Both the position numbers and the translations under genes were made by a program. Shown here piece after piece: positions 1 through 15,600 of a DNA stretch of 24,000 nucleotides. The first letter of the stretch is position 1; the number at the start of each line of letters is the position of its first letter. The stretch spans positions 1 to 24,000 of the forward strand of contig NZ_JBLRWZ010000018.1 in NCBI RefSeq assembly GCF_047920995.1, in the 5' to 3' direction. Under the pieces are notes generated by a model. The model saw only the letters and a program-made list of their open reading frames with translations. It was not told the DNA's origin and made no database searches. The stretch comes from Aliidiomarina sp. GTDB taxonomy: Bacteria > Pseudomonadota > Gammaproteobacteria > Enterobacterales > Alteromonadaceae.

Positions 1-24
1 GAATTGGACCGCAACAATCCCTAA
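1..24 (+). CDS. 3' end of an ORF running off the left edge (last residues ...ELDRNNP, then stop); possibly the precursor gene of the MNIO cluster
   Basis: Frame 1 is open from nt 1 to TAA at 22-24. That stop overlaps the ATG of the next gene (TAATG, 22-26), which suggests translational coupling. Seven residues are too few to identify the product. Confidence 0.3.
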   Translation, partial: ELDRNNP

Positions 25-896
25 TGGCCGATTTCAACGCAAATAGTTTGCCACGCTCTGTACTTGGTGCCGGTGTTAGCCTAAAACTTCAACACTATCC
101 GGAAGTACAGAGCGCAGCGGCAGATGGCATTTGGTTTGAGGTGCACACGGAGAACTTTTGTGGTATCGGTGGCGCTAGGCTTGAAGCTCTGCAGGTGATG
201 GCGGAAAAATTTCCTTTAAGTCTCCATGGTGTTGGAGCTTCCCTTGCGGGCCCTGATCAGCTGAGTAAACAGCACTTGTTATGGGTTCAAAATTTAGTTG
301 AACGTATTCAGCCAGCACTTATTTCAGAACATGCAGTTTGGTCGGGTATTCAGGAAGCTTATTTTGCAGATTTATTACCTTTTCCAAGAACCAAATTCAT
401 TTTACAACAATTAGCTGAAGGCATACATCGCTATCAAGAAACAATCGATAGGCCTTTATTAATTGAGAATCCAACACATTACGTTAATTTTTGCCATGAG
501 ATGAGTGAACCAGATTTCATGCTAACACTAGCTAAAACTACTGGATGTGGTTTGTTGCTCGATATTACCAATTTGTATTTAAGCCAGATTAACTGTGGCG
601 TAAATGCTCGGCAATACTTAGATCAAATTCCTCCTCACCTAGTAGGTGAACTGCATGTAGCTGGTTTTTCAAGCGACCCAATTGAAGGCGATCGTTTATT
701 AATTGATAGCCATGATCATGCACCGAATGAAGAAATACTAAGCTTACTAGATTATGCATTAGCGCGTTTTGGTATGAGGCCAGTTTTATTAGAGTGGGAT
801 GATCAAATTCCTGAACTAAATGTGCTTCTGCAGGAACGCGAGCGCATTCAAAGTGTGTTAGATCGGCATTTGGATAGCGTAGATGCAGCAAGTTAA
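24..896 (+). CDS. DUF692/UPF0276 family protein: multinuclear non-heme iron oxidase (MNIO, MbnB/BufB-like) RiPP-modifying enzyme
   Basis: 290-aa ORF with TIM-barrel DUF692 hallmarks in the translation: EVHTENF, LSLHGVG, ISEHAVW, LLIENPTHY, LLLDITNLY, ELHVAGF, LIDSHDH, LLEWDD. These are His/Glu/Asp-rich strand ends. Its stop is overlapped by the following DUF2063 gene. Confidence 0.85.
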   Translation: MADFNANSLPRSVLGAGVSLKLQHYPEVQSAAADGIWFEVHTENFCGIGGARLEALQVMAEKFPLSLHGVGASLAGPDQLSKQHLLWVQNLVERIQPALISEHAVWSGIQEAYFADLLPFPRTKFILQQLAEGIHRYQETIDRPLLIENPTHYVNFCHEMSEPDFMLTLAKTTGCGLLLDITNLYLSQINCGVNARQYLDQIPPHLVGELHVAGFSSDPIEGDRLLIDSHDHAPNEEILSLLDYALARFGMRPVLLEWDDQIPELNVLLQERERIQSVLDRHLDSVDAAS

Positions 897-1659
897 TGAA
901 TCGTTCTATCAGCAACTTATCGCCTATTTGCAGGGTGAAACTGCAACTAATTTAACCCCATGGGTGGGATTCAAACCGGAAGACCTGAGGCGATTAAAAA
1001 TTTACCGCAACAGCAGTATGAAAGCTTCGATACAAGCTTTAGTTGATAATTTCCCAGTGAGTGGTTCAGTAATACCCATTAACCAATTCCGGCATTTAGC
1101 TAAAGAATATGTACTTAAAAATCGGCCTACTCACCCTGTATTAGCTTGGTATGGGCAGGATTTCCCAGATTGGTTACTAAAACAAATAGATCAGCATCAT
1201 TGCTCATGGCTGGCCGACTTAGCTAAGTTAGAACGTTGTTGGCTTAATTGTTTACTGGCTGAGGATCAACAAGCCGTATCAGGAGAGGATATTGCCCATC
1301 TCGCAAGTGAAGGTATCGATATTCAATTACTCACCATGAGCTTGTGCGCGCATGTTGAACTATTAGAAACACATTTTGATGTTTGGACCTTGTGGTTACA
1401 ACAACGCAACAATTCAGGAAACGTTCAACTTTCCTCGATTGCTGCCGAGAAAACACGAAGGATGCTATGGCGACAAGCCAACCATACTGTGCAATACCGA
1501 TTATTATCGGATGCTGAATGGACATTTATACAAACTTTGAAAAAACAACCTTGCTCTTTGCAGAACGCAGTAAGTAAGGCATGGGAAGTAGACAAGCTCT
1601 TTGATGTTAGTGGTAGCTTCGCGGGCCTTTTACAAAACCGCTTGTTGCGCTTAATTTAA
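883..1659 (+). CDS. DUF2063 domain protein (BufC-like MNIO partner / putative precursor-recognition subunit)
   Basis: 258-aa ORF whose ATG at 883 overlaps the DUF692 stop by 14 nt. N-terminal DUF2063-type motifs are visible (LKIYRNS, ALVDNFP, YGQDFPDWL). The DUF692-DUF2063 pairing is the canonical synteny. Confidence 0.8.
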   Translation: MQQVNESFYQQLIAYLQGETATNLTPWVGFKPEDLRRLKIYRNSSMKASIQALVDNFPVSGSVIPINQFRHLAKEYVLKNRPTHPVLAWYGQDFPDWLLKQIDQHHCSWLADLAKLERCWLNCLLAEDQQAVSGEDIAHLASEGIDIQLLTMSLCAHVELLETHFDVWTLWLQQRNNSGNVQLSSIAAEKTRRMLWRQANHTVQYRLLSDAEWTFIQTLKKQPCSLQNAVSKAWEVDKLFDVSGSFAGLLQNRLLRLI

Positions 1660-1677
1660 CCTAAAAGGAATCAGATT

Positions 1678-2217
1678 ATGACCTTGGTAACTGTTATACA
1701 GGAACGCTATTACCAACTAGCTATGTGGTTAGAGCGTTTGTTTGAACCTTTTGCTCTATTAGCTATTCGATTATTAGTTGCTCAGGTTTTTTTACTCTCT
1801 GGATTATCAAAATGGACTGGCTTTTTGCAGTTTGATGTTAACAAGTATGAACTTTTTTTATATGAGTTTTTCTGCCCTGATCCTATTCGGCCAGGCGCTT
1901 TGTTACTATGCAATCCAGATACATTGGAATATACAGAAGGTTCTTTTGGTGTTTGGTTAGCGGAAACAATGGCGGTGATGGCTGGGGTGGTTGAAGTAGT
2001 ATTACCTATACTTTTAATTCTAGGTTTATTTAGCCGTTTTGCCGCTTTTGGTTTATTGGGTATGACGCTTTTTATTCAATTTGCTGTTTATCCAGATTGG
2101 AGCCATTTTTGGAACCCTGCAGCATGGTGGGCTGGAGTGTTATTTCTCATAGTTGCTAAGGGGCCTGGGCTGATTTCATTGGATCGTTGGTTACGACTAG
2201 AGCGTAAAGCTAGTTAA
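1678..2217 (+). CDS. DoxX family integral membrane protein
   Basis: 179 aa with about 4 hydrophobic helices and the DoxX N-terminal signature (LLAIRLLVAQVFLLSGLSKW). An AAGGA RBS lies 8 nt upstream of the ATG, 18 nt after the DUF2063 gene. Confidence 0.85.
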   Translation: MTLVTVIQERYYQLAMWLERLFEPFALLAIRLLVAQVFLLSGLSKWTGFLQFDVNKYELFLYEFFCPDPIRPGALLLCNPDTLEYTEGSFGVWLAETMAVMAGVVEVVLPILLILGLFSRFAAFGLLGMTLFIQFAVYPDWSHFWNPAAWWAGVLFLIVAKGPGLISLDRWLRLERKAS

Positions 2218-3134
2218 CTATGAACCGATCTGAATTCGCCTGGCGACAATGTTTCGTGTTGCTTAAAAAACCGAATAAATGCAGTAGCTGAGTGATAGCC
2301 AATTTGCTCTGCAATACTCTCTAGGCTGAGTTCACTGTGGATCAGTAGGTAACGGCATCGTTGTAATCGTATTTCGTCTAATAGTGACTTTGCCGTCATT
2401 ACCATCACTTTATGGCAGCGCTCAGCGAAAGCACTTTTAGACAAATATGCTAAAGCTGCCATATTCTCCACTGTCCAATCGGCACCCGGCTTATCCATAA
2501 TAGAAAGAACAACTCGGCGAAGAGCAGGATCTTTTAATGCCGCTAAAAGGCCTTGGTTCATGCTGTCGTCTGTTAATACTTGGCGCAATAAATGCAGCAC
2601 AATCACATCACTTAATCGGCTAATTGCAGCTTGATATCCCGGCTGCCGATCCTTCGTTTCCTGCTGAATCAACTGTACAAGCAGGTTGAGCGGGCCACAC
2701 TGCTGATTAACGGGTAAATGAATATAATCGGGCATCGCCTGAAATAAATTAGCTGTTGATGATGATTTAACGGCAATGTCATAACACACCAGGCCACGCT
2801 GCAGGTGTTGAGGAATACAAAAACCTTCAACATTTACCTCACTGGTATGTTCATCCACAGGCTGGTCGCTAAGCCAATGACGGAAACTATGGCTAAAAAA
2901 AACAGCATCACCGGCATGCAGCTGAATTTGTTCTTGGAGCTGGCCAGGGATTGCCATCCACACGCTACCCTGGGTAACAATGTGCAACGCTGCTTTACTC
3001 GATTTACTAGTAAGCAGGTTCCAGTTGTCACAAAAACCTGATTCAAAATGCAATTCAGAGCCAAACGCCAACTGAGATAACAATTGTTCTAGTGGTTCTG
3101 GTGTTTTGGTAGATGGTGCAGATGTTTTGGTCAT
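2214..3134 (-). CDS. AraC family transcriptional regulator with N-terminal cupin-like sensor domain
   Basis: 306 aa. The C-terminal double HTH is typical of AraC/XylS (LSKSAFAERCHKVMVMTAKSLLDEIRLQRCRYLL ... SLESIAEQIGYHSATAFIRFFKQHETLSPGEFR). The N-terminal half is beta-rich and cupin-like. Confidence 0.9.
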   Translation of the reverse strand: MTKTSAPSTKTPEPLEQLLSQLAFGSELHFESGFCDNWNLLTSKSSKAALHIVTQGSVWMAIPGQLQEQIQLHAGDAVFFSHSFRHWLSDQPVDEHTSEVNVEGFCIPQHLQRGLVCYDIAVKSSSTANLFQAMPDYIHLPVNQQCGPLNLLVQLIQQETKDRQPGYQAAISRLSDVIVLHLLRQVLTDDSMNQGLLAALKDPALRRVVLSIMDKPGADWTVENMAALAYLSKSAFAERCHKVMVMTAKSLLDEIRLQRCRYLLIHSELSLESIAEQIGYHSATAFIRFFKQHETLSPGEFRSVHS

Positions 3135-3230
3135 TGTAGGTAGCTGTAGAGTTTCCTAAACTTGGTTAGATAGTTAGCGTATGCAAGTTGTAACACAATA
3201 CCATTACAAATCAAAGAATGAGAGGTTGCT

Positions 3231-4163
3231 ATGCTGCAGTGGTTACAGAAGTTTGAAAAAAAACGGACGTTGCCTGTCCAACCTGAGCAAGTGAACAAAG
3301 ACTTACTCGCTAGCTTAATGATAATGGCGTGGTTTGTAGAAGCAAAAGATCCTTACACTGGCGGTCACTTATGGCGCGTTTCGCGCTATGCCAATCTGTT
3401 GTGCAGAGCTGGGGGGCTTCCGGAAGCTGATATCGCCCGAATCACGCTAGGCGGATTTCTACACGATCTTGGGAAAGTAGCCATTCCCGATTCAATTTTA
3501 AATAAGCGTGGTAAACTCGATGAGAATGAATTTGCCATCATAAAAACGCATCCTGAGGCTGGAGGCCGGCTGTTAGCGGGGCATCCGCTTCGTCACATCG
3601 TAGCGGCAGCAGTTGAATTGCACCATGAACGACCCGATGGCGGTGGCTATCCATATGGCTTGAATGCCAGTATGATTCCAATAGATGCTGCGATCATCGG
3701 GATTTGCGATGCTTTTGATGCGATGACGAGTTTACGTTCCTACCGCTCGCCTATGCCTGTAGAAAAGGCTCTAAATATTATGCGCGAAGAGTGCGGAAAA
3801 CAATTTAATCAATTCTGGTGTGAACAATTTTTAGCACTGGCCGAGCAAAACCTTCTCAATGATATTATGGGCCATAGCGATAACGGTATTCCACTGCATA
3901 CGTGTCCGCTCTGCGGCCCAACTGTGCTCCAACAACGCGATAATAAGCCGGGTGATTTACTCGCCTGTTCAGTTTGCTATAGTGAAATGGAATTATGCAC
4001 TGAACATGGGTATCTAACAGTTAAGCCAACTGGAAATAAAGCCTCTGCCGCGCAACTGCAGCCGAAAGCAGATAACTTATTAATCAAGCAATTGATTGAA
4101 GAATCTATAGGGCATATTCCATTGGAACAAGTAATTCAATTTTCCAGCCATAAAAACCAATAA
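3231..4163 (+). CDS. HD-GYP domain phosphodiesterase (cyclic-di-nucleotide hydrolase) with C-terminal Cys4 zinc-ribbon-like extension; no receiver or sensor domain upstream
   Basis: 310 aa. It carries the HD motif (FLHDLGK) and the HD-GYP signature (HHERPDGGGYP). The C-terminal CPLC-x17-CSVC motif lies at residues 225-249. A GAGAGG RBS precedes the ATG. Confidence 0.9.
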   Translation: MLQWLQKFEKKRTLPVQPEQVNKDLLASLMIMAWFVEAKDPYTGGHLWRVSRYANLLCRAGGLPEADIARITLGGFLHDLGKVAIPDSILNKRGKLDENEFAIIKTHPEAGGRLLAGHPLRHIVAAAVELHHERPDGGGYPYGLNASMIPIDAAIIGICDAFDAMTSLRSYRSPMPVEKALNIMREECGKQFNQFWCEQFLALAEQNLLNDIMGHSDNGIPLHTCPLCGPTVLQQRDNKPGDLLACSVCYSEMELCTEHGYLTVKPTGNKASAAQLQPKADNLLIKQLIEESIGHIPLEQVIQFSSHKNQ

Positions 4164-4183
4164 TAACGACGGGAAAACACAGC

Positions 4184-4675
4184 ATGACTGTGATAACACA
4201 TAATTTACAGCAACTGGATGTATTGAACACTATTGTACAACTAGTAAAACCTGAACATTACTCACAAGAACTGAACTGGCCGGGGACCCCCTCAGTAGGT
4301 AAGCATACGCGCCATGTATTGGGGCATTATCAGCAGTTGAGGTTAGCATTCGAGAACAAGCAACTCGATTATCGCTCACGAGTGCGTGATGAAGATATAG
4401 AAACCCAGCCGGCTAGAGCAATACAATGGATTGAAGGGATTCGTAGTTGGCTACAATCTTTGCACAGAGCAGATATTGAATGCACCATCCAGTATCAGTT
4501 TTCTGAAGGCAAAACATTTACTAGCTTACATCGTGAATTGGATTTTGTTGCTAGCCATTGTGTTCATCACTTAGCGCTCATCCATTCTATATTAGAAAAA
4601 TGGGATTATAAATGGCCCGAAAATGCTGGAGTGCATAGCTCAACAGTAGAGTATCAAAAACAATGTGCACTCTAA
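4184..4675 (+). CDS. DinB/YfiT-like four-helix-bundle protein (putative metal- or thiol-dependent enzyme)
   Basis: 163 aa, predicted helical. There are two His-rich motifs, GKHTRHVLGHY near the N-terminus and ASHCVHHLALIH near the C-terminus, resembling the DinB-fold His triad. It starts 20 nt after the HD-GYP gene, and its stop overlaps the next gene by 13 nt. The family call is by eye only. Confidence 0.6.
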   Translation: MTVITHNLQQLDVLNTIVQLVKPEHYSQELNWPGTPSVGKHTRHVLGHYQQLRLAFENKQLDYRSRVRDEDIETQPARAIQWIEGIRSWLQSLHRADIECTIQYQFSEGKTFTSLHRELDFVASHCVHHLALIHSILEKWDYKWPENAGVHSSTVEYQKQCAL

Positions 4676-6273
4676 GCTGGTGGTATAACAATCAGCGAAT
4701 ACACATCTTATTTAATCGAGATGAGCGAAAAAGTAGAGCACCTGCCATTTGGCCAAAGTGCTATCGAGAGGGTGATGTTGACGCTATCATGCCAATAGAT
4801 CCCGAAGGTGAAGGCAGCTGGATAGCTGCAAATTCGTTAGGCCAAGTATTTTGTTTGCTCAATGATTACATTTCCGCGAAGGCGGATACTTCGCTAACTA
4901 GGCAAAGCAGAGGGAAATTGTTGCGAAGCCTAGCACATAGTAAAGATTGGGCGTCGGTTGATGCCATGCTGCAACCCGAACTTTTAACTTGTTATGCACC
5001 ATTTCGGCTAGTAATTTTTACCGGCACACAGGAACCTACACTTTGGCATTGGAATGGGCAGTCAATTCACCAACAGTTTGCTCCCTCCTCTCCTATATCT
5101 AGTTCCAGTACTTTGCCGGGCTGCATACCGCTAATGCGCGAGTATTATTGGCGGAGCGAGATGCGAAAGGCGCCGTCATTACAAACGCTACGCAAGATAC
5201 ACCAGCAAGATCGTCCATGGCATGCTTTCAGTGGAATTGCCATGCAACGACGCTTAGTTGCAACCGTTAGTTTAACGCAGGTGGATGTTAGCGATAGCAC
5301 CGTTACCATGCAATACTGGGATGGCCATCCCAGTCAGCATAGTGAAACAGCAAACAAACGCATACAGTTAAACATAGGCGAAACTGAGCCAGTTGTTTCA
5401 ACTTTTACCTCTCAGTTCAATGTTAAGTCGTTGCTGCAGCGCTATAATCCGCCATTAGCGCAGCGCCTAACCGGCTGGCGCGGTCGCTTTTTAACCTGGT
5501 TGCTGGCAGAAAAAAAGGTAAACACAGTATTACAGGCTTTAAATCAACAGCCAGCAGAACGCTTTTGTGATTTGGCTTTACAACGATTGAATATCGTACC
5601 GCACATTATTGCTTGTCGCTGGCCGGCAGCAGATAGCAGGCCGGTATTTGTTTGTAATCATCCTACCGGCGGGATTGATGGGCTACTTTTAATTAGTGTG
5701 CTGCAAAAACGCTACCCAAATTTACGGGTGATTGCCAATGAAGTTCTCACAGAGATACAACAACTGGCCCCCTTACTCATACCAGTACCCGTATTTGGAA
5801 AACCTAAAGATGCACTACCAGCATTACAAGAAGCATTCGCTAGTAATGCGCCGCTATTAATATTTCCAGCCGGTAGAACTGCACGAATCAACACGAGTGG
5901 CATTCTCGATGACGGCCCGTGGGCGAAACTCGCAGTTACTTTAGCTAGCAGGCAACAGCGGCCGATAACAGTAATGCATCTGGATAACAAAAACTCTCGT
6001 TGGTTCTATTGGTTGGCGCGTTTACGTACCACATTTAAAATCGCTGCTAACCTAGAAATGCTATTATTAGTTCGAGAAATGTTGAATCCAACCAAGAAAC
6101 AACCACGGCTTTTTGTTGATATACCAATGCGGCCGATCGAACTCAGCGCTATTGCCGATCAACATACAGAGCGAATGGCATGGTTAAAACGACGTTGTTA
6201 CCAACTACCATTTATTTACCGGGAGAATACCGATGCAACAGTTAAATTCGGTTGCAGAAGCAGAGCCAATTGA
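4663..6273 (+). CDS. Fusion protein: N-terminal NRDE/TANGO2-family domain plus C-terminal PlsC-type (OlsA/GlsA-like) lysolipid O-acyltransferase
   Basis: 536 aa. The N-terminal domain aligns by eye to human TANGO2 landmarks: MCT start (Cys2), ILFNRDERKSRAP (the NRDE motif), EGSWIAANSLGQVFCLLNDY (matching GGTWLG...ALTNY), SRGKLL and YAPFRLV. The C-terminal half has acyltransferase blocks: VFVCNHPTGGIDGLLL (NHxxxxD-like block I) and LLIFPAGRTAR (FPxG block III). Confidence 0.85.
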   Translation: MCTLSWWYNNQRIHILFNRDERKSRAPAIWPKCYREGDVDAIMPIDPEGEGSWIAANSLGQVFCLLNDYISAKADTSLTRQSRGKLLRSLAHSKDWASVDAMLQPELLTCYAPFRLVIFTGTQEPTLWHWNGQSIHQQFAPSSPISSSSTLPGCIPLMREYYWRSEMRKAPSLQTLRKIHQQDRPWHAFSGIAMQRRLVATVSLTQVDVSDSTVTMQYWDGHPSQHSETANKRIQLNIGETEPVVSTFTSQFNVKSLLQRYNPPLAQRLTGWRGRFLTWLLAEKKVNTVLQALNQQPAERFCDLALQRLNIVPHIIACRWPAADSRPVFVCNHPTGGIDGLLLISVLQKRYPNLRVIANEVLTEIQQLAPLLIPVPVFGKPKDALPALQEAFASNAPLLIFPAGRTARINTSGILDDGPWAKLAVTLASRQQRPITVMHLDNKNSRWFYWLARLRTTFKIAANLEMLLLVREMLNPTKKQPRLFVDIPMRPIELSAIADQHTERMAWLKRRCYQLPFIYRENTDATVKFGCRSRAN

Positions 6274-7123
6274 GCTGATACGGCAGGAGCTAGCAACATT
6301 AGCGCCTTTAGTAACCGTGCGAGGTTTGCATGTATACAGTGCTCGGGCAACGGAAATTCCGGTAACCATGCGAGAGATAGGTAGGTTACGGGAAATTATT
6401 TTTCGCCAATCGGGGGCTGGACGCAATATGGCTCGCGATCTCGATGACCTTGATTATGGCGAAGCGGCTTATTACCAATTGTTAGTTTGGGACCCGAAAC
6501 GCTTTGAACTAGTAGCCATGTATCGATATCAACTAGGTTGGGCATCAACAGAGCACGGCTATGCTATTTTACGAACCCACCAGCTATTTGAGTACAGCAA
6601 CGCAATGCGCGAACAAGTACTTCCATATGGTATAGAACTGGGCCGCTCTGTGGTAAATTCACAAGCTAAAGCTCGTAGCTTGGGGTTTTATGCATTGTGG
6701 GCTGGGCTGGGAACTTTAGCGCGAATGTATCCGCAGTTACGATATTTTTTTGGTAATGTTTCGCTATACCAAAACCTTGGCCGAGATGCCTTAGATTGTA
6801 TGGTTTCATTTTGTGAGCAGCTATATGCTCCACCAGAATCGATGATGTTAGCAAAAGCAGGTTTACAATATCATCCCACTCAATCGCTCAATTGCACAGC
6901 ATGGGAACCACTGAACCCCTCAGCACGCATCCGTGAATTGCAACATATATTGAAACAGTTCGATTGTCGATTACCACCAATTTTGCAATCGTATTTAAGT
7001 GTGGGCAACGATATTTGGTTTGATGACGCTGCACTCGATGATGATTTCGGACAAGCTTATGAGCTGAGTATTATAGTACCGCTCTCTGCAGTAAGCGGTG
7101 TTATTCGAGAACGCTTTTTATAA
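6233..7123 (+). CDS. GNAT-fold N-acyltransferase of the OlsB/GlsB (Acetyltransf_5, hemolysin-like) type; putative N-acyl amino acid synthase
   Basis: 296 aa with motifs typical of the OlsB-like family: IGRLREIIFRQSGAG, DLDDLDY, YQLLVWD, GIELGRSVV, FYALWAGLG, YFFGNVSL, LPPILQSYLSVG, DDDFGQAYELSIIV. A GGGAGA RBS precedes the ATG. It overlaps the preceding gene by 41 nt. Confidence 0.85.
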   Translation: MQQLNSVAEAEPIELIRQELATLAPLVTVRGLHVYSARATEIPVTMREIGRLREIIFRQSGAGRNMARDLDDLDYGEAAYYQLLVWDPKRFELVAMYRYQLGWASTEHGYAILRTHQLFEYSNAMREQVLPYGIELGRSVVNSQAKARSLGFYALWAGLGTLARMYPQLRYFFGNVSLYQNLGRDALDCMVSFCEQLYAPPESMMLAKAGLQYHPTQSLNCTAWEPLNPSARIRELQHILKQFDCRLPPILQSYLSVGNDIWFDDAALDDDFGQAYELSIIVPLSAVSGVIRERFL

Positions 7124-7308
7124 CTATTCATTAGCGCTAAGCTGAAATACGGTCCGAGCCAGTTGCGGCCATTTCGCGTTTCCGATGCGCTAAGCGCGCC
7201 AGCGCACAGACACCTTTAAAGCATCCCTGCATAGTCGCTTCCATGTAGATTTCTACAGCATACGGGTGTTGCATATATCCCGTATAACTTTACTGCAAGG
7301 ATATCCAA

Positions 7309-9663
7309 ATGCGCCCTACAATACTTTTCTTCTCCAGCCTGCAAAAATGGCTGATATTAGCCATAGCTGGTTCACTATTAATGGCCTGCAATGATGCGGG
7401 CCGTGATCCTATTCTCGGTGCAGATGGCAATGTTGCACTCGCACCAACTGTAGTAATGGTAACGCCGGCGAACAATGCTACCGATGTTACTATTACGGAT
7501 CCTACAATAACCGCTGAATTCAGCGTTCCGGTAGCCAGTTTGAGCGCTGCCAACTTCACAGTAACATGCGCAAGCCCCTGTACAGCGCCCTCTGGCACCA
7601 TTGAAATGAATTCGGCCAATACTGTGGCTACTTTTGTTATCGCTGAATCTGACATCCTAGAGCCACTCACTGAATATACCGCTACCATCCATACTGCCGC
7701 TAGCAGCGAAACTGGCATCGCCATGGATAGCCCGTACATTTGGCGATTCACCACCGGGGCTGCTCCGATTGTTGATGAGGAAGAAGAAGAGGAGGACGTG
7801 CTTCCACCCCCACCGCCTCCTGCACCAACCGTAATCATGGTAACTCCGGAAAACAATGCAACGAATGTTGATATCGCAAACCCAGCTATAACGGCCGAGT
7901 TCAACGAGCCGGTAGATAGCTTAACCGATGCTGATTTTACGGTTACATGCGCAAGCCCGTGTACGAATGCCTCTGGCACCATTGAAATGAGTGAAGAAAA
8001 TACCTTCGTAACTTTCAACATTGCCGAGTTTGATACTCTTGAACCACTCACTGAATATACGGCCACCATTTATAATGCTACTAGCAGCGAAAGCGGCGTA
8101 ACGATGCAAGACCCGTATATTTGGGAATTCACAACTGGCCGTACGCCAGATACAACTCGCCCACGGGTGGTTGCAACAAATCCGCTAACAACAGATCCAG
8201 GCCCTACTCCAAATGTTCCAGCTAACACGGTTATTTCCGCTGCATTTAGCGAAGAGATGTTAGCTACCACGATCAATGATACGAGCTTTATTGTTACCTG
8301 TGAGTTGCCATGTGCATCACCTGCAGGCGCCGTGTCATATGTGTCTGGATCTAACAGTGCTGTATTTACACCAGAAGAAAACCTTGCTGAAGGCGCAACA
8401 TACACCGCTACAGTTACTAGTGACGTTACCGATTTAGCGGGTAATCGGCTTGCTGGTAACCAAGCCCCTAGCACAAGTGCTAGTGATTACATCTGGGCAT
8501 TCACTACGATGGCAGCCATTGAGCCAGAGTTTATTTCTATCCTCTCTACCGATCCAATTGATGGTGGTGTAATTGCGGTTTGTGAGAACGCCAGTATTAA
8601 TGCAACCTTCGATATACCTTCTGGCCTGCGCCTTAATCCAGAAACCGTTAACAACATGACCTTTCTGATTGTTGAAAACAACGAACCAACGAATACCGTA
8701 GCCGCTGAATCTATCAAAGTTGATTTAGATACCGGCACCATCATTACCTTTATTCCAGAAAGCGACCTCGTGGAAGGCATGATTTACCGCGCTACGATCG
8801 TAGGTGGAGAAAATGGCGTGAAAGATCTAATGCTTCCTGGCAATCAACTGGAAGAAGATTTCGTTTGGACCTTTACATCAGAAGAGCCTGTTGATGGCTG
8901 TTTACAACCAGCGGATCTTGGCAGTGCTGCACCATTTGGTACATTCGGTGGCAGTGCAGGCGTAACCAATCAGGGTTTACTCACCATTATTAATGGCGAT
9001 TTAGGCACTACGGCTACATCAACATTAGTAACTGGTTTTGTTTCTGAGCCTGGCTGTGAATATACCATTACAACGTTAAATGAAGGCCAAGTGAACGGTA
9101 AAATCTTTACCGCGCCACCGCCGCCAACCGTTGCTTGCCCGCAAGATGGTACTGCAGCTACCGAGGCCATCGCGATTCAGGCGCGCCTTGATGCTGAAGC
9201 GGCATTCATCGCGCTTTCACCTGCCAATATGCCAGGTGGACAAGATCCAGGTAATGATAATCTTGGCAGTCTTACCTTAACGCCAGGTATTTATACCGCC
9301 CCAAGTGGCTCATTCATGATCCAAGGTGGCGACCTAACCTTAGATGCGCAAGGTAATCAAAATGCCGTATGGGTTTTCCAAATGGCAACCACGCTTACGG
9401 TAGGCGGCCCCGGTGCTGATTTCCCACAAAGTGTAACGCTTATCAATGGCGCTCAAGCAAAGAACATCTTCTGGCAAGTTGGCAGCGCAGCAACAATTAA
9501 TGCAGCAGGTGGTGGCACCATGAAAGGCACCATAATCGCGCAAGATGGCGTGAGCATTTCAACCGCTGGCAACGTGAACATCGTTACTTTAGATGGTAGA
9601 GCGTTGTCGCTTACCGCCTCGGTTACGGTTGTAAATACCGTGATTAACGTACCTGCAGAGTAA
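7309..9663 (+). CDS. Surface lipoprotein with four Big_5 (SbsA-type Ig-like) domains and a C-terminal DUF3494 ice-binding-protein-like beta-solenoid domain
   Basis: 784 aa with a signal peptide and lipobox (SLLMA|C27). There are four roughly 105-aa Ig-like modules ending in (Y/F)(I/V)WxFT(T/S). The C-terminal domain matches the DUF3494 pattern: LGSAAPFGTFGGSAGVTNQG..INGDLGTT, LTLTPGIYTA, LTLDAQGNQNAVWVFQ, AKNIFWQVGSAATI, GTIIAQDGVSI, LDGRALSLTASVTV. Confidence 0.9.
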   Translation: MRPTILFFSSLQKWLILAIAGSLLMACNDAGRDPILGADGNVALAPTVVMVTPANNATDVTITDPTITAEFSVPVASLSAANFTVTCASPCTAPSGTIEMNSANTVATFVIAESDILEPLTEYTATIHTAASSETGIAMDSPYIWRFTTGAAPIVDEEEEEEDVLPPPPPPAPTVIMVTPENNATNVDIANPAITAEFNEPVDSLTDADFTVTCASPCTNASGTIEMSEENTFVTFNIAEFDTLEPLTEYTATIYNATSSESGVTMQDPYIWEFTTGRTPDTTRPRVVATNPLTTDPGPTPNVPANTVISAAFSEEMLATTINDTSFIVTCELPCASPAGAVSYVSGSNSAVFTPEENLAEGATYTATVTSDVTDLAGNRLAGNQAPSTSASDYIWAFTTMAAIEPEFISILSTDPIDGGVIAVCENASINATFDIPSGLRLNPETVNNMTFLIVENNEPTNTVAAESIKVDLDTGTIITFIPESDLVEGMIYRATIVGGENGVKDLMLPGNQLEEDFVWTFTSEEPVDGCLQPADLGSAAPFGTFGGSAGVTNQGLLTIINGDLGTTATSTLVTGFVSEPGCEYTITTLNEGQVNGKIFTAPPPPTVACPQDGTAATEAIAIQARLDAEAAFIALSPANMPGGQDPGNDNLGSLTLTPGIYTAPSGSFMIQGGDLTLDAQGNQNAVWVFQMATTLTVGGPGADFPQSVTLINGAQAKNIFWQVGSAATINAAGGGTMKGTIIAQDGVSISTAGNVNIVTLDGRALSLTASVTVVNTVINVPAE
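7441..8139 (+). repeat. Intragenic tandem duplication: two 318-nt Ig-like-domain copies (7441-7758 and 7822-8139), period 381 nt, separated by an acidic/proline linker
   Basis: Copy 1 reads APTVVMVTPANNATDV...TCASPCTAPSGTIEM...EPLTEYTATI...PYIWRFTTG. Copy 2 reads APTVIMVTPENNATNV...TCASPCTNASGTIEM...EPLTEYTATI...PYIWEFTTG. The linker is DEEEEEEDVLPPPPPPAP (about 7774-7821). Confidence 0.85.
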
Positions 9664-9698
9664 TAGATAAAGCGCACACGCTTTTAGTGGAGAACAAA

Positions 9699-11144
9699 AT
9701 GAAAACGATTATAAAAACACAGGCGATTGTTACTCTTGCTCTACTTGGCATCACAATGCCAGCTCTAGCAACCGAACAAAACCGATGGTACTTCGGCGCA
9801 GGCGGTGGGCTTACGCTCGCCAACATCGCCCAGCAAGAAATTATTGCCGACCTACTTGGGGCCGGTTATGAAACAACTGAGTTTCGCGATAACGATAGTG
9901 ATTTCGGTTACAAGCTCTATGTAGGTTACCAATTCAACCCATACCTCGCTCTTGAAGGGGGGTATTTTGATCTTGGTGAATTTGATTACACCGCAACTAC
10001 CATTCCCGCGGGCACTAAAACCGGCTCCTTGAGTTTTAGTGGTTGGAATATGGATGCAGTAGGAACAATTACATTAACCGAGCGCTCTTCACTGATCGCC
10101 CGGGTGGGTTTGCATGAAGGCACAACAAAAACCCAATTCGCCGGCACAGGCGCGGTTAACGTGCTGAACTCGGATTATCGCAACAAAGACATTGATTACA
10201 AAATTGGTGTTGGCTATCAATATAAAGTAAATGATGCTTGGAGCTTACGCTTAGAAGCGGAACGTTTTCGTATTGATGATGCTGTGGGCAATACCGGCCA
10301 TGTAGATCTGTATTCACTGAATGTGGTTTACCGCTTTGGTACTCGTAAACATGCGCCAGTAGCCGCAACCCCGCCGCCGCCAGTACAACAGCCCGCGCCG
10401 CGTCCAATAGCAGTAGCAACTGAGCAATACTGCAGCGAACTGGGTATCCAATTTGAGATTGGTAATGAAAATATTGAGCGAGTAAACCGAGAGCCAATCT
10501 TAGTTCTTGCTACATTCTTAGAAAAGTACCCTGATACTACTGCAATCATTCAAGGGCATACCGATAACGTTGGTACCGCAGCTGATAATCAGCGTTTATC
10601 TGAGCAGCGTGCAAGTAGCCTACGCAATTACTTAATAGGTGAGCATGGCATTAACGCAAGCCGCTTAACGGCCGTTGGCTTCGGTGAAAGCCAGCCGATT
10701 GCCAGCAATAGCACCACCCAGGGGCAACAAGCGAATCGCCGAATTAACACCGTAATTGATTGTGCTACCGATATTGCTGGCCTCAGCACACTGCCAGCGC
10801 GCACAACATTGGCGATGGCACTTGAATTCGAGGTAGAAAGTTCAGCTGTGCAATCGAAGTATCATTTACAATTAGAAAGCGTTGCAAAATATATGCAACT
10901 CAACCCTGATGTGATGGTTACGCTCGAAGGGCATACCGACAATGCGAATCCTGCTACTGCGCAAAGAATATCGCAAGAACGAGCACAAAGCGTAGCGGAT
11001 TATCTTGTGCGAACGCTTAAAGTTGATCGTTCACGTTTGCATGTTGAAGGGTTCGGTGCAACACGCCGCGATACATACAATATCACTGCTTCGCACCGCC
11101 AAGAAAATCGCCGTGTAAATATCGTAATTGGTTACCCTAACTAA
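9699..11144 (+). CDS. OmpA family outer-membrane protein: N-terminal beta-barrel, Pro-rich hinge, two tandem OmpA_C peptidoglycan-binding domains
   Basis: I prefer the ATG at 9699 (MKTIIK...) because GGAG lies 6 nt upstream; the track start at 9687 is a GTG inside that RBS. The signal peptide ends ALA|TEQ. Barrel strands are visible (YFGAGGGLT, YVGYQFNPYLALEGGYFDLG, IGVGYQYKV, LNVVYRF). The hinge is PPPPVQQPAPRP. The first OmpA_C domain has GHTDNVGTAADNQRLSEQRA...VGFGESQP and the second has GHTDNANPATAQRISQERA...EGFGA. It lies 35 nt downstream of the lipoprotein gene. Confidence 0.9.
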   Translation: MKTIIKTQAIVTLALLGITMPALATEQNRWYFGAGGGLTLANIAQQEIIADLLGAGYETTEFRDNDSDFGYKLYVGYQFNPYLALEGGYFDLGEFDYTATTIPAGTKTGSLSFSGWNMDAVGTITLTERSSLIARVGLHEGTTKTQFAGTGAVNVLNSDYRNKDIDYKIGVGYQYKVNDAWSLRLEAERFRIDDAVGNTGHVDLYSLNVVYRFGTRKHAPVAATPPPPVQQPAPRPIAVATEQYCSELGIQFEIGNENIERVNREPILVLATFLEKYPDTTAIIQGHTDNVGTAADNQRLSEQRASSLRNYLIGEHGINASRLTAVGFGESQPIASNSTTQGQQANRRINTVIDCATDIAGLSTLPARTTLAMALEFEVESSAVQSKYHLQLESVAKYMQLNPDVMVTLEGHTDNANPATAQRISQERAQSVADYLVRTLKVDRSRLHVEGFGATRRDTYNITASHRQENRRVNIVIGYPN

Positions 11145-11162
11145 TTACTGCCGATTATGAAT

Positions 11163-11205
11163 AAAAACGTGTGTTGAGGAATCATTCCCAACACACGTTT
11201 TTTTT
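11163..11205. terminator. Bidirectional rho-independent terminator between convergent genes
   Basis: The sequence is AAAAA-CGTGTGTTGaGGAATcATTCCcCAACACACG-TTTTTTTT. It forms a long interrupted stem flanked by an A-run and a T-run. Confidence 0.85.
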
Positions 11206-11212
11206 GCTTGAG

Positions 11213-11962
11213 TTAGTAGTTAGGTGTGTAGTGCAATAATCGATTGCATTCTACTTTAACAACCTCATAGCACTCACAGCTTAGCTTCTCGAGCGCTGGC
11301 CGATTGATTATGGTTAAACAGCCTCGATGATATTCAATAATACCCGCTTTTTGTAATTTTCCTGCCGCTACCGATACCCCTTCCCTGCGCACTCCTAACA
11401 TATTAGCAATGAGCTCTTGGGTCATGGTAAGTACGTTGGTTGGAATTCTATCGAGTGATAACAACAACCATCGGCACAATTGTTGATCCACAGAGTGGTG
11501 GCGATTACATACCGCAGTTTGCGCCATCTGGGTCATGAGCGATTGCGTATAGAGCAGAAATAGGGAGCGGAATTCCTTGCTTCGATCAAATTCCTCTTTT
11601 AACACCTGAGCAGGCAACCGATAAGCCGCGCCTGCACTTTGCACTACTGCTCGATGTGGCGTGCTATCACCACCCAAAAAGAGTGATTTGCCCATCATGC
11701 CATCATTACCGATAACCGAAATCTCTGCTGAATCACCGTTTTCCATCACATAAACCAATGAGATTATTGAGTTAGTTGGGAAAATAGCATATTTAATTTT
11801 TTCGCCAGATTCATATAGCGATTCCCCCAGCGGTAAATCCACTACTTCTAAATGTGGCTTTATCCGTACTTTCACCATTTCGGGTAACGCACTCAATAAG
11901 TAGTTTTGTTCGCATGTTGATTCTGGAAACTCCCCGTTGTCCATCATCTGTATTGAATCCAT
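11213..11962 (-). CDS. Crp/Fnr family transcriptional regulator (cNMP-binding domain plus HTH_Crp)
   Basis: The C-terminal HTH reads LTMTQELIANMLGVRREGVSVAAGKLQKAGIIEY, and the N-terminal beta-roll reads IFPTNSIISLVYVMENGDSAEISVIGNDGMMG. There is no N-terminal FNR Cys cluster. The track start at 11977 is TTG, so I prefer the ATG at 11962 (MDSIQ...), with GGGGAA upstream. The start remains uncertain. Confidence 0.85.
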   Translation of the reverse strand: MDSIQMMDNGEFPESTCEQNYLLSALPEMVKVRIKPHLEVVDLPLGESLYESGEKIKYAIFPTNSIISLVYVMENGDSAEISVIGNDGMMGKSLFLGGDSTPHRAVVQSAGAAYRLPAQVLKEEFDRSKEFRSLFLLYTQSLMTQMAQTAVCNRHHSVDQQLCRWLLLSLDRIPTNVLTMTQELIANMLGVRREGVSVAAGKLQKAGIIEYHRGCLTIINRPALEKLSCECYEVVKVECNRLLHYTPNY

Positions 11963-12086
11963 GGAAGATTTCCCCAATGTTGGACAGCACGTTTATATAC
12001 TGGCGGTTCAGTAATTTTGGTGGCTAGTTATACTCGAGTAATACAACAACTACAACGCAAATCAGGCCTTACTTCCACCTTTACGA

Positions 12087-12129
12087 GTTATTAACATTCA
12101 GCTATTAACTTAAGTTATTGTTAAATAAC
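12087..12129. promoter_or_regulatory. Cluster of AT-rich palindromes in the crp-family/gpx divergent intergenic region (candidate operator)
   Basis: There is a perfect 12-bp palindrome TAACTTAAGTTA at 12106-12117. It sits within a 5-4-5 layout, TTAAC-TTAA-GTTAT (12105-12118), as in CRP/FNR-type sites. It overlaps a perfect 6-4-6 inverted repeat GTTATT-gtta-AATAAC at 12114-12129, and GTTATTAAC occurs at 12087-12095. Confidence 0.3.
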
Positions 12130-12279
12130 CCGATAAACGTAGTAACTTCGGGTCATACTTTAGCACCCTGAAATTTTCCAATAACCTCAAGGCAAATGTG
12201 ATCTATATCGTCCATTTTGAACTACTATAAATGCTACTATTTCTTTATTAATGCGTGCTTAATCACGCGTAGGCTTATC

Positions 12280-12936
12280 ATGAAAAATATCGTGCAAAAT
12301 AACCTTACTATGGTGGGTTTTACTGCCCCTACAGCAGCTAAAATTGCAGCATATATGTTGCTACTAGTGCTTGCCGCTTTCGCCTCATTCAATGGGCACG
12401 CCCAAGAACGTTCGGCCTCAAATAGGGCGCAGTTCTCGCAAACCGAACAAGGCTGTTTAGATACGTTTAACCACTCCTTACGTGCACTACACTCTACAGA
12501 ACAGCATGATTTATGCGAGCTTACTAAAGATAAAGTGGTGCTCGTGGTGAATACCGCAAGCCAATGTGGTTACACCGGGCAGTTTGCAGATTTAGAAGCG
12601 CTCTACCAAGAGTATCAATCGCAAGGCCTTGTTATTCTTGGCTTTCCTTCAGATAGCTTTCGCCAAGAGCATGCCGACGAAGCGGCAACCGCTGATGTTT
12701 GCTTTCGTAATTTCGGGGTAAGCTTTCCGATGATGGCCACCTCATCAGTTACAGGTAACAATGCCAACAACATCTTTAAAACACTTACCCAAGCTACTAG
12801 CGAAGCGCCCGGCTGGAACTTTCATAAGTACCTAATTTCTGCGAATGGCGAGCAAGTTACCAGCTTCGCCAGTGCGGTAAAACCTACCAATGGGGTAATA
12901 GTTAAAGCAGTTGAAGAGCTATTAAAAGCGCGGTAA
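12280..12936 (+). CDS. Glutathione peroxidase family protein (Cys-type), exported/periplasmic
   Basis: GPx motifs are present: NTASQCGYTGQF (peroxidatic Cys), LGFPSDSFRQE, WNFHKYL. I prefer the ATG at 12280 (MKNIVQ...), which is followed by a hydrophobic signal/anchor (AAKIAAYMLLLVLAAFASF). The track start at 12217 is TTG. Confidence 0.9.
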   Translation: MKNIVQNNLTMVGFTAPTAAKIAAYMLLLVLAAFASFNGHAQERSASNRAQFSQTEQGCLDTFNHSLRALHSTEQHDLCELTKDKVVLVVNTASQCGYTGQFADLEALYQEYQSQGLVILGFPSDSFRQEHADEAATADVCFRNFGVSFPMMATSSVTGNNANNIFKTLTQATSEAPGWNFHKYLISANGEQVTSFASAVKPTNGVIVKAVEELLKAR

Positions 12937-13007
12937 TTCGTAAAGTTTTTAGTTACCAGAGCGGACACACAAAGCAATGAGCACTGCATATTACCCCCAG
13001 CAAAACA

Positions 13008-13031
13008 GGCAGCTAGTAGCAACTAGCTGCC
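13008..13031 (-). terminator. Hairpin terminator candidate downstream of the Ntn-hydrolase gene
   Basis: A perfect 10-bp stem GGCAGCTAGT/ACTAGCTGCC encloses a 4-nt loop. On the minus strand it is followed by TGTTTTG, a short T tract, and it lies 11 nt after the stop at 13042. Confidence 0.5.
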
Positions 13032-13041
13032 CGCTTATCTG

Positions 13042-14094
13042 CTACAAGCCCTGAAACTCGAATGGCGCTGAAGCTACAAAGTTAGCACTAGCCTCACCTG
13101 CGTAGATTTGCCCCTCATCCAACGCCAGCTTTTTCACCTCAGCGCCAGCACTGAAGTTCACTTTGCTGAAATCTACCCAAACGGTATTTGGCGTAAGTAC
13201 ATTCTCGAAGTAGTACACCAAATTACGCTGATCTGCCACTACGCGCCAACGCGTATTCGATAAGTGTGGCTCTTCTGGCGTGCCGATACCATAGGGTACT
13301 GATACGTTGCGCACTACGCTAAATACACTCGCGGCAGCAATTTGCGGATCGCTCGTTTGCGGAATCATATCTAAATAGTACGAAGCTCGCACAAAACGAT
13401 CAGCCGCTTTACCGGTGCCAGGCAAAAACGCTTTACCAGGTACACTTTGCCAATAGCTCTTTATCGCCAGCTGTTCCGCAAAAGGTGGATCGTTGGTCAT
13501 TACTTGGTAATCGCGGCTATGGTGGATTTCTAACTTACCGCCAATATATTCAAATATGGCGCTATCACCGCTAGCATCTGAGAGTGATAAATGCACAGTG
13601 GTGAACTTATCCGTGCCGGGTATAAAATCAGAAACAATCGCAAAAGGTACGTCGGCAAAAAACTCAACTGCCTCGGCCACGGTAGCAAAGTTATCTAACG
13701 TATACTGTGCCCACGCTGAAATGGTAAGCCCTGGGGCATCGCCGTACTGATCAAATTCTGGATATTCAGAGGCTACTAACCATAACAAGTTGGCTACCAA
13801 ACCTTTTTCATTCATACCATCTGGGGTAGCAATATCCCACGAGCTAGCGGCAACGCTGCCATATTTTGAGCGCCAAGTAATAGAATTTGGCCCTACTTGG
13901 CCATGCCGCTCCATACCACGTGGGAAAATCCATAGGTTGGCGGGAATATCAATTGAGAAATCCATACTGCGGCCAGTAAGCACGGTATCATTTGGGCCTA
14001 AATAAACCAAACGAGTGCAAGCCTCTGCTGGGGTTGGCGAGGCAACAACAGCTGCAAAAATTGCGGCCGCTAGTGTAGAAACAACTTTTTTCAT
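13042..14094 (-). CDS. Secreted linear amide C-N hydrolase, choloylglycine hydrolase / penicillin V acylase family (Ntn hydrolase)
   Basis: 350 aa. The signal peptide MKKVVSTLAAAIFAAVVASPTPAEA is immediately followed by CTRLVY, so Cys would be the new N-terminal nucleophile, as in this family. Conserved stretches include GRSMDF, NEKGL and a C-terminal NTRWRVVAD-type segment. Confidence 0.88.
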   Translation of the reverse strand: MKKVVSTLAAAIFAAVVASPTPAEACTRLVYLGPNDTVLTGRSMDFSIDIPANLWIFPRGMERHGQVGPNSITWRSKYGSVAASSWDIATPDGMNEKGLVANLLWLVASEYPEFDQYGDAPGLTISAWAQYTLDNFATVAEAVEFFADVPFAIVSDFIPGTDKFTTVHLSLSDASGDSAIFEYIGGKLEIHHSRDYQVMTNDPPFAEQLAIKSYWQSVPGKAFLPGTGKAADRFVRASYYLDMIPQTSDPQIAAASVFSVVRNVSVPYGIGTPEEPHLSNTRWRVVADQRNLVYYFENVLTPNTVWVDFSKVNFSAGAEVKKLALDEGQIYAGEASANFVASAPFEFQGL

Positions 14095-14208
14095 ATCAGC
14101 ATACTCTCTATCAATAAGGTTACCCCATTAATAGGTAATAGCTGTTATGGTGTCAAACTGTAATAACCATACTAGAAACATCCAGAAATGAGCCGCAAAA
14201 GGCTGCTT

Positions 14209-14619
14209 TTAGGCTGCAGCCTCAGCGTGGGCTCTGATTTTTGCCACAATTGCGCGTAAGCCATTACCGCGGGTAGGGCTAATATGCTGCTCTAAATCGA
14301 GGGTTTGGAAGTACTGATCAATATCAAAGGCTAAAATTTCGCTCGGTGTACGCTGGTTATATACCGACATCACCAAACCTAATAAACCTTTCACGATCAT
14401 GGCGTCACTATCTACCGAAAATTCCAATTTGCCATCGTTGTTTTTGCTGATTAGCCACACATCGCTTTGGCAACCTTTCACTTTATAGATATCCAGCCGT
14501 TGTTCCGGGCTAAGCGCAGGAAGCGCTTTGCCTAAATCGATAATGTATTCGTAACGATTTTCCCAATCATCGAGAAACTCTAAATCTTCTAAGATTTCTT
14601 CATGGCTTGGTAATTTCAT
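14209..14619 (-). CDS. sufE: Cysteine desulfuration (sulfur acceptor) protein SufE
   Basis: The SufE active-site context KVKGCQSDVWL is present. The ATG at 14619 (MKLPSHEE...) has AGGA 7 nt upstream and gives a typical length of about 136 aa. The track start at 14676 is TTG. Confidence 0.9.
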   Translation of the reverse strand: MKLPSHEEILEDLEFLDDWENRYEYIIDLGKALPALSPEQRLDIYKVKGCQSDVWLISKNNDGKLEFSVDSDAMIVKGLLGLVMSVYNQRTPSEILAFDIDQYFQTLDLEQHISPTRGNGLRAIVAKIRAHAEAAA

Positions 14620-14696
14620 AACGCGTCCTAGTTTATCGATTTCAGTTTTGTACGGAAGGTTGTATACATTCGGCAAGAGCTTTTTAATGGCGGTAG

Positions 14697-15227
14697 TTAA
14701 AAGAACATGCCGGTTTCAAGCTGCGCTTCTTCGCTCATCATTTCGCGAGACCAGGCTGGGTCAAACACAAGATCAACTTGCACATCACGCACATTCGGTA
14801 CCATCGCTACGCGTAATTCCACATCGCCAACGAGTACCGGCCCCATGCCACAACCGGGAGCTGTGAGCGTCATCTCAATATTCACAATGCCGGTATCTTG
14901 ATGGATATCTACCTTATAGATCAGCCCCAAAGATACGAGGTTAATGGGAATTTCTGGGTCGTAGATACTTTCTAGCGCTTCCCAAACCTGATCCGGATTA
15001 ATGTTGCCATCACCGGCATCTTCGAAATCCAGCACCAGTGCTTGGCGGCCAATCGCATCGGCATCAGTGCCATCAATGCGGTACATATTACCTTTCCAAG
15101 TTACGGTATAATTACCGCCTAACTCTTGGGTAAGGGTAACGAATTCGCCTTGTGGTATTATTTGTTTCTCGCCTTGCGGCACGCGCCGAGCACGCACCTC
15201 ACGCGAGGTAGCCATCATTTTTTGCAT
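14697..15227 (-). CDS. sufT: Fe-S cluster assembly protein SufT (long DUF59/MIP18 family)
   Basis: 176 aa with a C-terminal DUF59 core (IYDPEIPINLVSLGLIY, LTAPGCGMGP). Its ATG overlaps the sufA stop (TAATG). The position inside the suf operon supports the call. Confidence 0.85.
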   Translation of the reverse strand: MQKMMATSREVRARRVPQGEKQIIPQGEFVTLTQELGGNYTVTWKGNMYRIDGTDADAIGRQALVLDFEDAGDGNINPDQVWEALESIYDPEIPINLVSLGLIYKVDIHQDTGIVNIEMTLTAPGCGMGPVLVGDVELRVAMVPNVRDVQVDLVFDPAWSREMMSEEAQLETGMFF

Positions 15228-15586: not shown

Positions 15587-15600
15587 AATTTGCCTCCAGC

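Follow-up and report, generated by a model that had tools for sequence, protein, structure and literature searches.

Gene content and layout of the locus

Four genes on the forward strand occupy positions 3231–7123 of a 24,000-nucleotide stretch of the Aliidiomarina sp. genome (contig NZ_JBLRWZ010000018.1 of assembly GCF_047920995.1; hereafter the window) and probably form a single operon. They encode, in order, an HD-GYP domain protein (3231–4163; 310 amino acids, aa), a DinB-like protein (4184–4675; 163 aa), a TANGO2-acyltransferase fusion protein (4663–6273; 536 aa) and a GNAT-family acyltransferase (6233–7123; 296 aa). The successive gaps are +20, −13 and −41 nucleotides (nt), and 185 nt separate the end of the operon from the next forward-strand gene, which starts at 7309. 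A regulator gene of the AraC family lies divergently, 96 nt upstream. An initial annotation, made from the nucleotide sequence alone, had placed all of these elements at the same coordinates, and its domain calls were also correct: HD_5, DinB_2, TANGO2 with Acyltransf_2, and Acetyltransf_5 all exceed their Pfam gathering scores. Public proteins P0042 (HD-GYP) and P0162 (DinB) are identical over their full length (100%) to the corresponding window proteins. Judged by gene neighbourhoods in other genomes, the conserved unit at this locus is not the quartet but the DinB-like gene together with TANGO2.

Co-transcription of the four genes is suggested by their spacing, by Shine-Dalgarno sites, by junctions without terminators and by conserved gene order. 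A weak GGGA precedes the start of the DinB-like gene, GGGAGA lies 7 nt 5′ of the ATG of the GNAT gene, and the overlap between the second and third genes reads ATGTGCACTCTAA. In neither intergenic junction did a consensus scan find a terminator-like site; all of its matches were weak hairpins within coding sequence, and it returned 6 promoter-like sites where 8.7 were expected from shuffles; the scan is weak and speaks neither for nor against internal signals. The order DinB-like, TANGO2-acyltransferase, GNAT recurs in about ten loci, Natronospirillum among them, which are all the fusion loci in which both neighbours could be read, and their fusion proteins are only ~30–60% identical. In a further fusion locus, from a Spirochaetaceae metagenome-assembled genome, the contig ends before any GNAT gene could be seen. 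The least conserved junction of the operon is that between the HD-GYP and DinB-like genes, where relatives carry an NrtS-like gene.

The divergent regulator (2214–3134, reverse strand) combines a Cupin_6 sensor domain with HTH_18 (Pfam; 105.1 and 63.7 bits, respectively). Against the NCBIfam RclR model it scores 98.6 bits, well below the cut-off of 400, and it is not assigned as an RclR equivalog. Orthologues of it (E-values of 1e-100 to 1e-177) stand in the same divergent orientation to the DinB-TANGO2 operon in five other loci, those of Alkalimonas and Alishewanella (L081 and L082), L092, L094 and the Idiomarinaceae genome HL-53 (L089), regardless of which gene opens the operon. The divergent control region (3135–3230) aligns with its equivalents in L081, L082, L092 and L094 and contains the conserved block CTTCCTAA.CTT...AGTTAGTCTAAGG...TTGCAA; an Rfam screen found no riboswitch or other RNA family match in it. 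The first gene behind this region is the HD-GYP gene in the window, a gene for a 150-aa protein in L081, L082 and L092, and the DinB-like gene itself in L094. Since the regulator stays while the first gene varies, AraC is the operon's constant partner and HD-GYP a movable gene of their shared control region. It is probable that AraC regulates the operon promoter.

The DinB-like/TANGO2 pair and a predicted split aminolipid synthase

The N-terminal part of the fusion protein, from residue 1 to ~240 (4663–5382, forward strand), is a TANGO2/NRDE domain with the Cys-N-terminal nucleophile (Cys-Ntn) hydrolase fold. It scores 31.5 bits against Pfam TANGO2 (PF05742; gathering score 22.6), begins with MCT, so that a cysteine directly follows the initiator methionine, carries NRDE at residues 18–21 and is modelled with the alpha-beta-beta-alpha sandwich of Ntn enzymes. 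A profile-to-PDB sequence match reached an E-value of only 0.12, and Foldseek matched the modelled domain to human TANGO2 (9bwa and 8sv7; E = 1e-8; target-normalised template modelling (TM) score of 0.63 to 9bwa), as well as to isopenicillin N acyltransferase (2x1d), bile salt hydrolases, penicillin V acylase and acid ceramidase. The model of the whole fusion protein has a mean predicted local distance difference test score (pLDDT) of 91.2 and a predicted TM score (pTM) of 0.90, the latter indicating two domains packed together in a fixed arrangement; the last 15 residues, which overlap the start of the GNAT gene, are disordered. Setting aside the known fusion homologues, the 140 nearest representatives carry Cys2 in 136 cases and [NST]RDE in 139. 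Human TANGO2 has a Cys-Ntn fold and an unknown substrate (PMC13044924) and has been found to bind acyl-coenzyme A (acyl-CoA; PMC11867700). We infer from the motifs and the model that the window domain is catalytically competent, with Cys2 as its nucleophile; because the cysteine follows the initiator methionine, precursor self-cleavage would not be needed. The fusion protein has ~38 full-length relatives. The public record P0002 (343 aa, ‘hypothetical protein’) starts at the internal Met194 of this gene and for that reason lacks the TANGO2 domain and the overlap with DinB, whereas the 536-aa open reading frame (ORF) is intact in the window and in its relatives. The reverse strand at 13042–14094, ~6 kb downstream of the operon, encodes a second enzyme of Cys-Ntn type, from the choloylglycine hydrolase family (CBAH, 143 bits).

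The DinB-like protein scores 29.6 bits against Pfam DinB_2 (gathering score 24.8). A PDB sequence search with it gave no meaningful match, and the structural support for its place in the DinB/YfiT superfamily comes from its model (pLDDT 88), a four-helix bundle that Foldseek matches to YjoA (3dka), YfiT (1rxq), DR0053 (6iz2) and mycothiol and bacillithiol S-transferases, with TM scores of 0.6–0.77 to 3dka, 1rxq, 3gor and 6iz2. Its residues H41, H44, H125, H128 and H129 are invariant, the last helix carries an HxxxH motif, and H44, H125 and H129 form the predicted metal-binding triad. A word-index search with this protein recovered only 11 relatives, and the size of its family was judged from the search with the linked TANGO2 domain.

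Every locus with a readable upstream gene carries a homologue of the DinB-like gene directly upstream of TANGO2 (E-values of 1e-15 to 1e-70 in the fusion loci). The fusion loci come from Alkalimonas, Alishewanella, Salinispirillum, two Idiomarinaceae-type genomes, Natronospirillum, the Spirochaetaceae metagenome-assembled genome and several metagenome contigs. The 13-nt overlap between the two genes recurs in several lineages, and the conserved C-terminal CA[PL] of the DinB-like protein results from reading the MCT codons of the downstream gene in a different frame. A metagenome scan with a five-sequence alignment of the TANGO2 domain revealed a second, larger group, in which the DinB-like gene is followed by a stand-alone TANGO2 gene of ~245 aa, with neither the acyltransferase nor the GNAT; this arrangement also occurs in genomes of Marinobacter and Salinivibrio. 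An exhaustive search found 1458 representative clusters of this TANGO2 subfamily at E ≤ 1e-10, and among the best 150 of these most proteins are 230–280 aa long and ~20 are TANGO2-acyltransferase fusions. The pair appears to be an older two-gene cassette; it usually occurs without acyltransferases, and the fusion is a minority form. The synteny check found all four window genes together within one clade only. The DinB-like/TANGO2 pairing is the most interesting part of the locus and was absent from the initial annotation. Genes flanking the stand-alone cassettes may hint at the substrate of the pair. They include ATP-grasp ligases (L107, 4544–6949; L117, 3568–5979; L115, 8740–11334), of which those in Marinobacter-type loci are an 800-aa TTL-family protein and that in L115 is an abhydrolase-VTT-RimK fusion. 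Genes of membrane-lipid context are found there as well, namely VTT/DedA (L115, L117 and L118) and PgpA (L115).

The C-terminal half of the fusion protein is a lyso-aminolipid O-acyltransferase domain of the GlsA/OlsF-N type (5419–6273, forward strand; Acyltransf_2, 108.6 bits), and the fourth gene encodes an amino acid N-acyltransferase of the GlsB/OlsF-C type (6233–7123, forward strand; Acetyltransf_5, 36.8 bits). The O-acyltransferase domain carries the motif NHPTGGIDG, of the form NHPxGxxDG, with H333 invariant and D339 nearly invariant, and its fold matches PlsC (5kym) and GPAT (1k30); it adjoins the Acetyltransf_5 protein through the 41-nt gene overlap. On the NCBIfam OlsF model of 570 positions, residues 252–515 of the third gene product align with positions 2–265 and residues 5–295 of the fourth with positions 277–568. 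The two products together span positions 2–568, which upholds the earlier assignment of the last two genes as an aminolipid-type pair of O- and N-acyltransferases and, by sequence, makes them a split synthase of the OlsF/GlsA-GlsB type. The best equivalog models are GlsA for the third gene (162.7 bits; cut-off 260) and GlsB for the fourth (176 bits; cut-off 300), while the OlsF scores are 123.6 and 158.3 (cut-off 620). A contig scan with the full fusion alignment, which recovered mostly Bacteroidota GlsA and was used as a negative control only, listed matches in 78 GlsA-type loci from other phyla. GNAT is adjacent in 68 of the 78, so this pairing is one already known, and none of these listed loci has a DinB or TANGO2 gene.

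The HD-GYP gene and cyclic di-GMP signalling

The product of the first gene contains HD_5 (Pfam, 112.8 bits) and matches the solved HD-GYP proteins PmGH, an active enzyme (4mcw; E = 1.3e-33), and V-cGAP3, which is specific for cyclic GMP-AMP (cGAMP; 5z7c; E = 6.9e-31). Its motifs HDLGK, HHERPDGGGYP and CDAFDAMTS align with the catalytic motifs of both and place it in the HD-GYP family, with canonical cyclic di-GMP (c-di-GMP) phosphodiesterase activity as the prediction. The description of this protein as sensor-less holds in so far as classical sensor domains such as REC and GAF are missing, but it is not a bare catalytic domain: a C-terminal zinc ribbon of the form CxxC...CxxC occupies residues 225–249 (CPLC at 225, CSVC at 246). 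Literature searches on HD-GYP zinc ribbons returned nothing useful.

Homologues of the HD-GYP protein number 4476, and proteins of ~300 aa with 50–58% identity are found across gamma- and betaproteobacteria. Their contexts differ. In a Pseudomonas the orthologue lies near patatin, DUF547 and extracytoplasmic function (ECF) sigma factor genes; in Sulfuritalea (L090) it directly follows a GGDEF gene, beside a bufferin-type operon. Only in the window, in L081 and L082, and in L092 does it lie within the lipid operon, and in L089 it follows AraC on the strand opposite to the operon. HD-GYP is thus placed as a lineage-specific addition to the operon. Upstream of AraC, the window holds a bufferin-type operon for a ribosomally synthesised and post-translationally modified peptide (24–2217, forward strand), with MbnB/DUF692 (24–896), HvfC/DUF2063 (883–1659) and DoxX (1678–2217) genes; its BufA precursor gene, present in L081 and L082 (PF10048), is lost at the window's left edge. 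That HD-GYP belongs to this upstream operon was considered and kept as a minor possibility only: the orthologue in Sulfuritalea adjoins a bufferin-type operon too, but L089 retains HD-GYP with AraC and the lipid operon and has no bufferin operon.

In 6 of 11 lineages an enzyme of c-di-GMP turnover is encoded no more than ~7 kb from the cassette, and in four of these it lies within about three genes; these are raw counts, not set against a genomic background. HD-GYP stands beside the module in four loci and behind the same AraC in L089, a GGDEF-EAL protein stands beside it in the Salinispirillum and Marinobacter-type loci, and the distant relative P0039 is an acyltransferase-GNAT-GGDEF fusion. 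The relatives also carry two operon genes that are missing from the window. One encodes a protein of 150–168 aa with no Pfam or NCBIfam match (L081, 4887–5339; L082, 4901–5350; L089, 4436–4942), the L081 and L089 copies of which are 43% identical. The other encodes an NrtS-family membrane protein of 68–82 aa (L081, 6287–6535; L082, 6298–6522; L089, 4209–4415), assigned by NF038050 above its cut-off; it lies between HD-GYP and DinB in L081 and L082, directly upstream of DinB in L089, and as a separate gene in the Marinobacter-type loci. In Salinispirillum (L083) the GGDEF-EAL protein encoded directly downstream of GNAT (9582–11393) has an NrtS-like N-terminus (residues 13–62), and this fusion ties NrtS-like proteins to c-di-GMP enzymes in the manner of a Rosetta stone. 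Taken together, the neighbourhoods suggest that the association with c-di-GMP is real but facultative, and regulatory.

Proposed function and comparison with known systems

The reading that we favour, and consider fairly likely, is that the locus is a regulated envelope-lipid module that makes an amino-acid lipid with the participation of the DinB/TANGO2 pair, under the control of AraC and with HD-GYP co-regulated. The GNAT would N-acylate an amino acid, probably with a 3-hydroxy fatty acid by analogy with GlsB and OlsB, and the C-terminal half of the fusion protein would O-acylate the resulting lyso-lipid to give an acyloxyacyl amino-acid lipid. The acyl donors of OlsF are themselves undetermined (PMC12971839). 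The TANGO2 domain and its DinB-fold partner, the genes of which are probably coupled in translation, would have an acyl thioester or N-acyl amide as substrate. The pair may provide the acyl group, edit it, or process the head group, with Cys2 acting as the nucleophile does in isopenicillin N acyltransferase or bile salt hydrolase/transferase. The divergent RclR-like AraC would control the operon promoter. In the window lineage HD-GYP would have been placed behind that promoter, so that lipid remodelling and the lowering of c-di-GMP would be switched on together; its link to the module would be one of co-regulation and not of a shared chemical pathway.

Several observations weigh against this interpretation. 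The close relative L094 lacks HD-GYP, and its AraC gene and control region lead directly into DinB, fusion and GNAT genes; no c-di-GMP gene was found within ~7 kb of the cassette in five more distant lineages (L086, L001, L002, L108 and L115). The GlsA, GlsB and OlsF equivalog cut-offs were all missed, so the head group cannot be named, and the operon could make a secreted N-acyl amino acid instead of a membrane lipid. The role given to DinB and TANGO2 is pure inference. In Natronospirillum (L001) the fusion protein (6992–8485) has MDAL in place of MCT and lacks both Cys2 and NRDE, while the DinB-like and GNAT neighbours are kept beside the degenerate domain, from which it follows that the TANGO2 domain can be non-catalytic. 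The window operon may also be a reduced form, given the two genes that it lacks; a tblastn search of the window found no remnant of either the NrtS-like or the 150-aa gene.

A bolder form of the proposal is possible but tentative: the DinB-like/TANGO2 pair would be an undescribed two-component enzyme acting on acyl thioesters or N-acyl amide lipids, the fusion would reveal acyl transfer or editing as the work of TANGO2, and the cassette would be wired to c-di-GMP through NrtS-like modules. Of similar, rather doubtful standing is the strong form of the main idea in the initial annotation, namely that c-di-GMP turnover and the lipid module are one system across bacteria, in which a membrane signal changes c-di-GMP and the DinB-TANGO2/aminolipid genes are the output. 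The presence of c-di-GMP enzymes near the cassette in 6 of 11 lineages, the three forms of the NrtS-family protein (operon gene, GGDEF-EAL N-terminus and separate gene) and the P0039 fusion argue for it. Against it stand the absence of HD-GYP from L094 and of c-di-GMP genes from the five lineages named above, the change of enzyme type between HD-GYP and GGDEF-EAL, the missing NrtS-like gene in the window, and the richness of these genomes in c-di-GMP genes. The claim that lipid remodelling is coupled to c-di-GMP turnover is partly supported: the enzymes recur near the module, but the quartet is not conserved. HD-GYP may plausibly be linked to the module by regulation, but not by a part in the lipid chemistry itself.

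It is unlikely that the pair instead handles a thiol conjugate, with DinB as a metal-dependent thiol S-transferase and TANGO2 as a Cys-Ntn amidase that together make or trim an unusual head group for N-acylation by GNAT. The EgtB/EgtC and mercapturate pathways offer an analogy for such a combination. The structural matches of the DinB model to bacillithiol and mycothiol S-transferases, the amidase fold of TANGO2, the thioredoxin and DsbD genes that recur nearby in L081, L082, L089, L094 and L108, and the RclR-like regulator are all consistent with it, but a thiol substrate has no direct support, most cassettes stand alone without GNAT, and the nearest DinB structures are of uncharacterised proteins.

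The initial annotation had also raised the recruitment of HD-GYP for a lipid phosphoester, and this suggestion is unlikely. That the enzyme hydrolyses a different phosphoester of the lipid pathway, or cGAMP in place of c-di-GMP, is very improbable. It lacks a receiver or other classical sensor domain, and its second-best solved relative is the cGAMP-specific V-cGAP3, near PmGH; its motifs, however, are all canonical, it belongs to a widespread and tight family that is found without lipid genes and, in Sulfuritalea, directly behind a GGDEF gene, OlsF/GlsAB-type pathways have no phosphoester intermediate (PMC12971839), and a PADLOC screen gave no defence-system match. Least probable of all is a haem-trafficking role for the TANGO2 domain, with the operon serving haem or cytochrome handling and not lipid chemistry: the Shewanella protein HtpA (SO0126) is reported as a haem-binding TANGO2 homologue (PMC10470608) and in L107 the gene behind the stand-alone TANGO2 is cytochrome c-like, but the window domain is fused to and packed against an acyltransferase, Cys2 and NRDE are almost invariant, the neighbour of HtpA is a metal transporter and not DinB, and the haem role is disputed in two reports (PMC13044924; PMC12782551).

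Downstream of the operon, the gene at 7309–9663 (forward strand) encodes a protein of 784 aa in which four Big_5 domains are combined with an ice-binding-like domain at the C-terminus; the long antisense ORFs over it, such as 7290–8069 (reverse strand), look spurious. Behind it lies the gene for an OmpA-type protein (9687–11144, forward strand), which has two OmpA domains besides a beta-barrel. The stretch 11213–20293 has a redox-stress flavour, with a Crp-like regulator (11213–11977, reverse strand), a glutathione peroxidase-like protein (12217–12936, forward strand) and a suf iron-sulphur assembly cluster on the reverse strand (SufE, FeS_assembly_P, SufA-like, SufS, SufD and SufC); a 478-aa ORF in the suf stretch (18857–20293) lay outside the domain scan.

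What makes the locus valuable is the TANGO2-acyltransferase fusion with its obligate DinB partner, more than the HD-GYP coupling. Mutations in TANGO2 cause a severe metabolic disorder in humans, and the function of the protein is disputed between haem chaperone, acyl-CoA binder and Cys-Ntn hydrolase; a bacterial fusion with an intact nucleophile, an acyltransferase and a DinB-fold partner is a genetically tractable system for finding its substrate. For the aminolipid field, the locus is a variant of the OlsF/GlsAB type with two extra conserved components, and the association of HD-GYP or GGDEF-EAL and NrtS-like modules with an envelope-lipid cassette is recurrent, if not universal. The earlier statement that this gene combination is not a characterised system is borne out by two sources: a 2026 aminolipid review makes no mention of TANGO2, NRDE, DinB, HD-GYP or c-di-GMP (PMC12971839), and the paper on the structure of human TANGO2 does not contain the terms fusion, operon or gene neighbourhood (PMC13044924). 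Literature searches on Aliidiomarina aminolipids returned nothing useful.

Compared with PmGH, PA4781, RpfG and the V-cGAPs, the window HD-GYP protein likewise has a complete catalytic domain, in which no metal-binding or GYP motif is missing. Unlike them, it has no REC, GAF or N-terminal sensor and carries the C-terminal zinc ribbon instead, and in relatives of the window an NrtS-like membrane protein adjoins it. The regulator shares with RclR, the reactive-chlorine regulator, only the Cupin_6 and AraC architecture. With OlsF and the Bacteroides glycine lipid synthases GlsA and GlsB, the window shares both catalytic domains and their order, O- before N-acyltransferase. It differs from OlsF in that the synthase is split over two overlapping genes, and from both in the additional N-terminal TANGO2 domain of the O-acyltransferase and the DinB-like gene that precedes it.

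Like human TANGO2 and Shewanella HtpA, the window TANGO2 domain has Cys2, NRDE and an Ntn fold. It is only 12–14% identical to human TANGO2 and, in contrast to it, is fused to a lipid acyltransferase; the pairing with a DinB-like gene is not reported for either protein, and the HtpA paper does not mention DinB (PMC10470608). The fold and the N-terminal cysteine nucleophile are also common to acyl-CoA:isopenicillin N acyltransferase and bile salt hydrolase/transferase, from which the domain differs in having no detectable sequence similarity to them; Cys-Ntn enzymes of that kind catalyse acyl hydrolysis or transfer at amide bonds (PMC13044924). The DinB-like protein, finally, shares the four-helix bundle and the conserved histidines of the DinB/YfiT superfamily, including the bacillithiol and mycothiol S-transferases and YjoA, but at ~8–17% identity to the solved members it represents a distinct subfamily, marked by its linkage to TANGO2.

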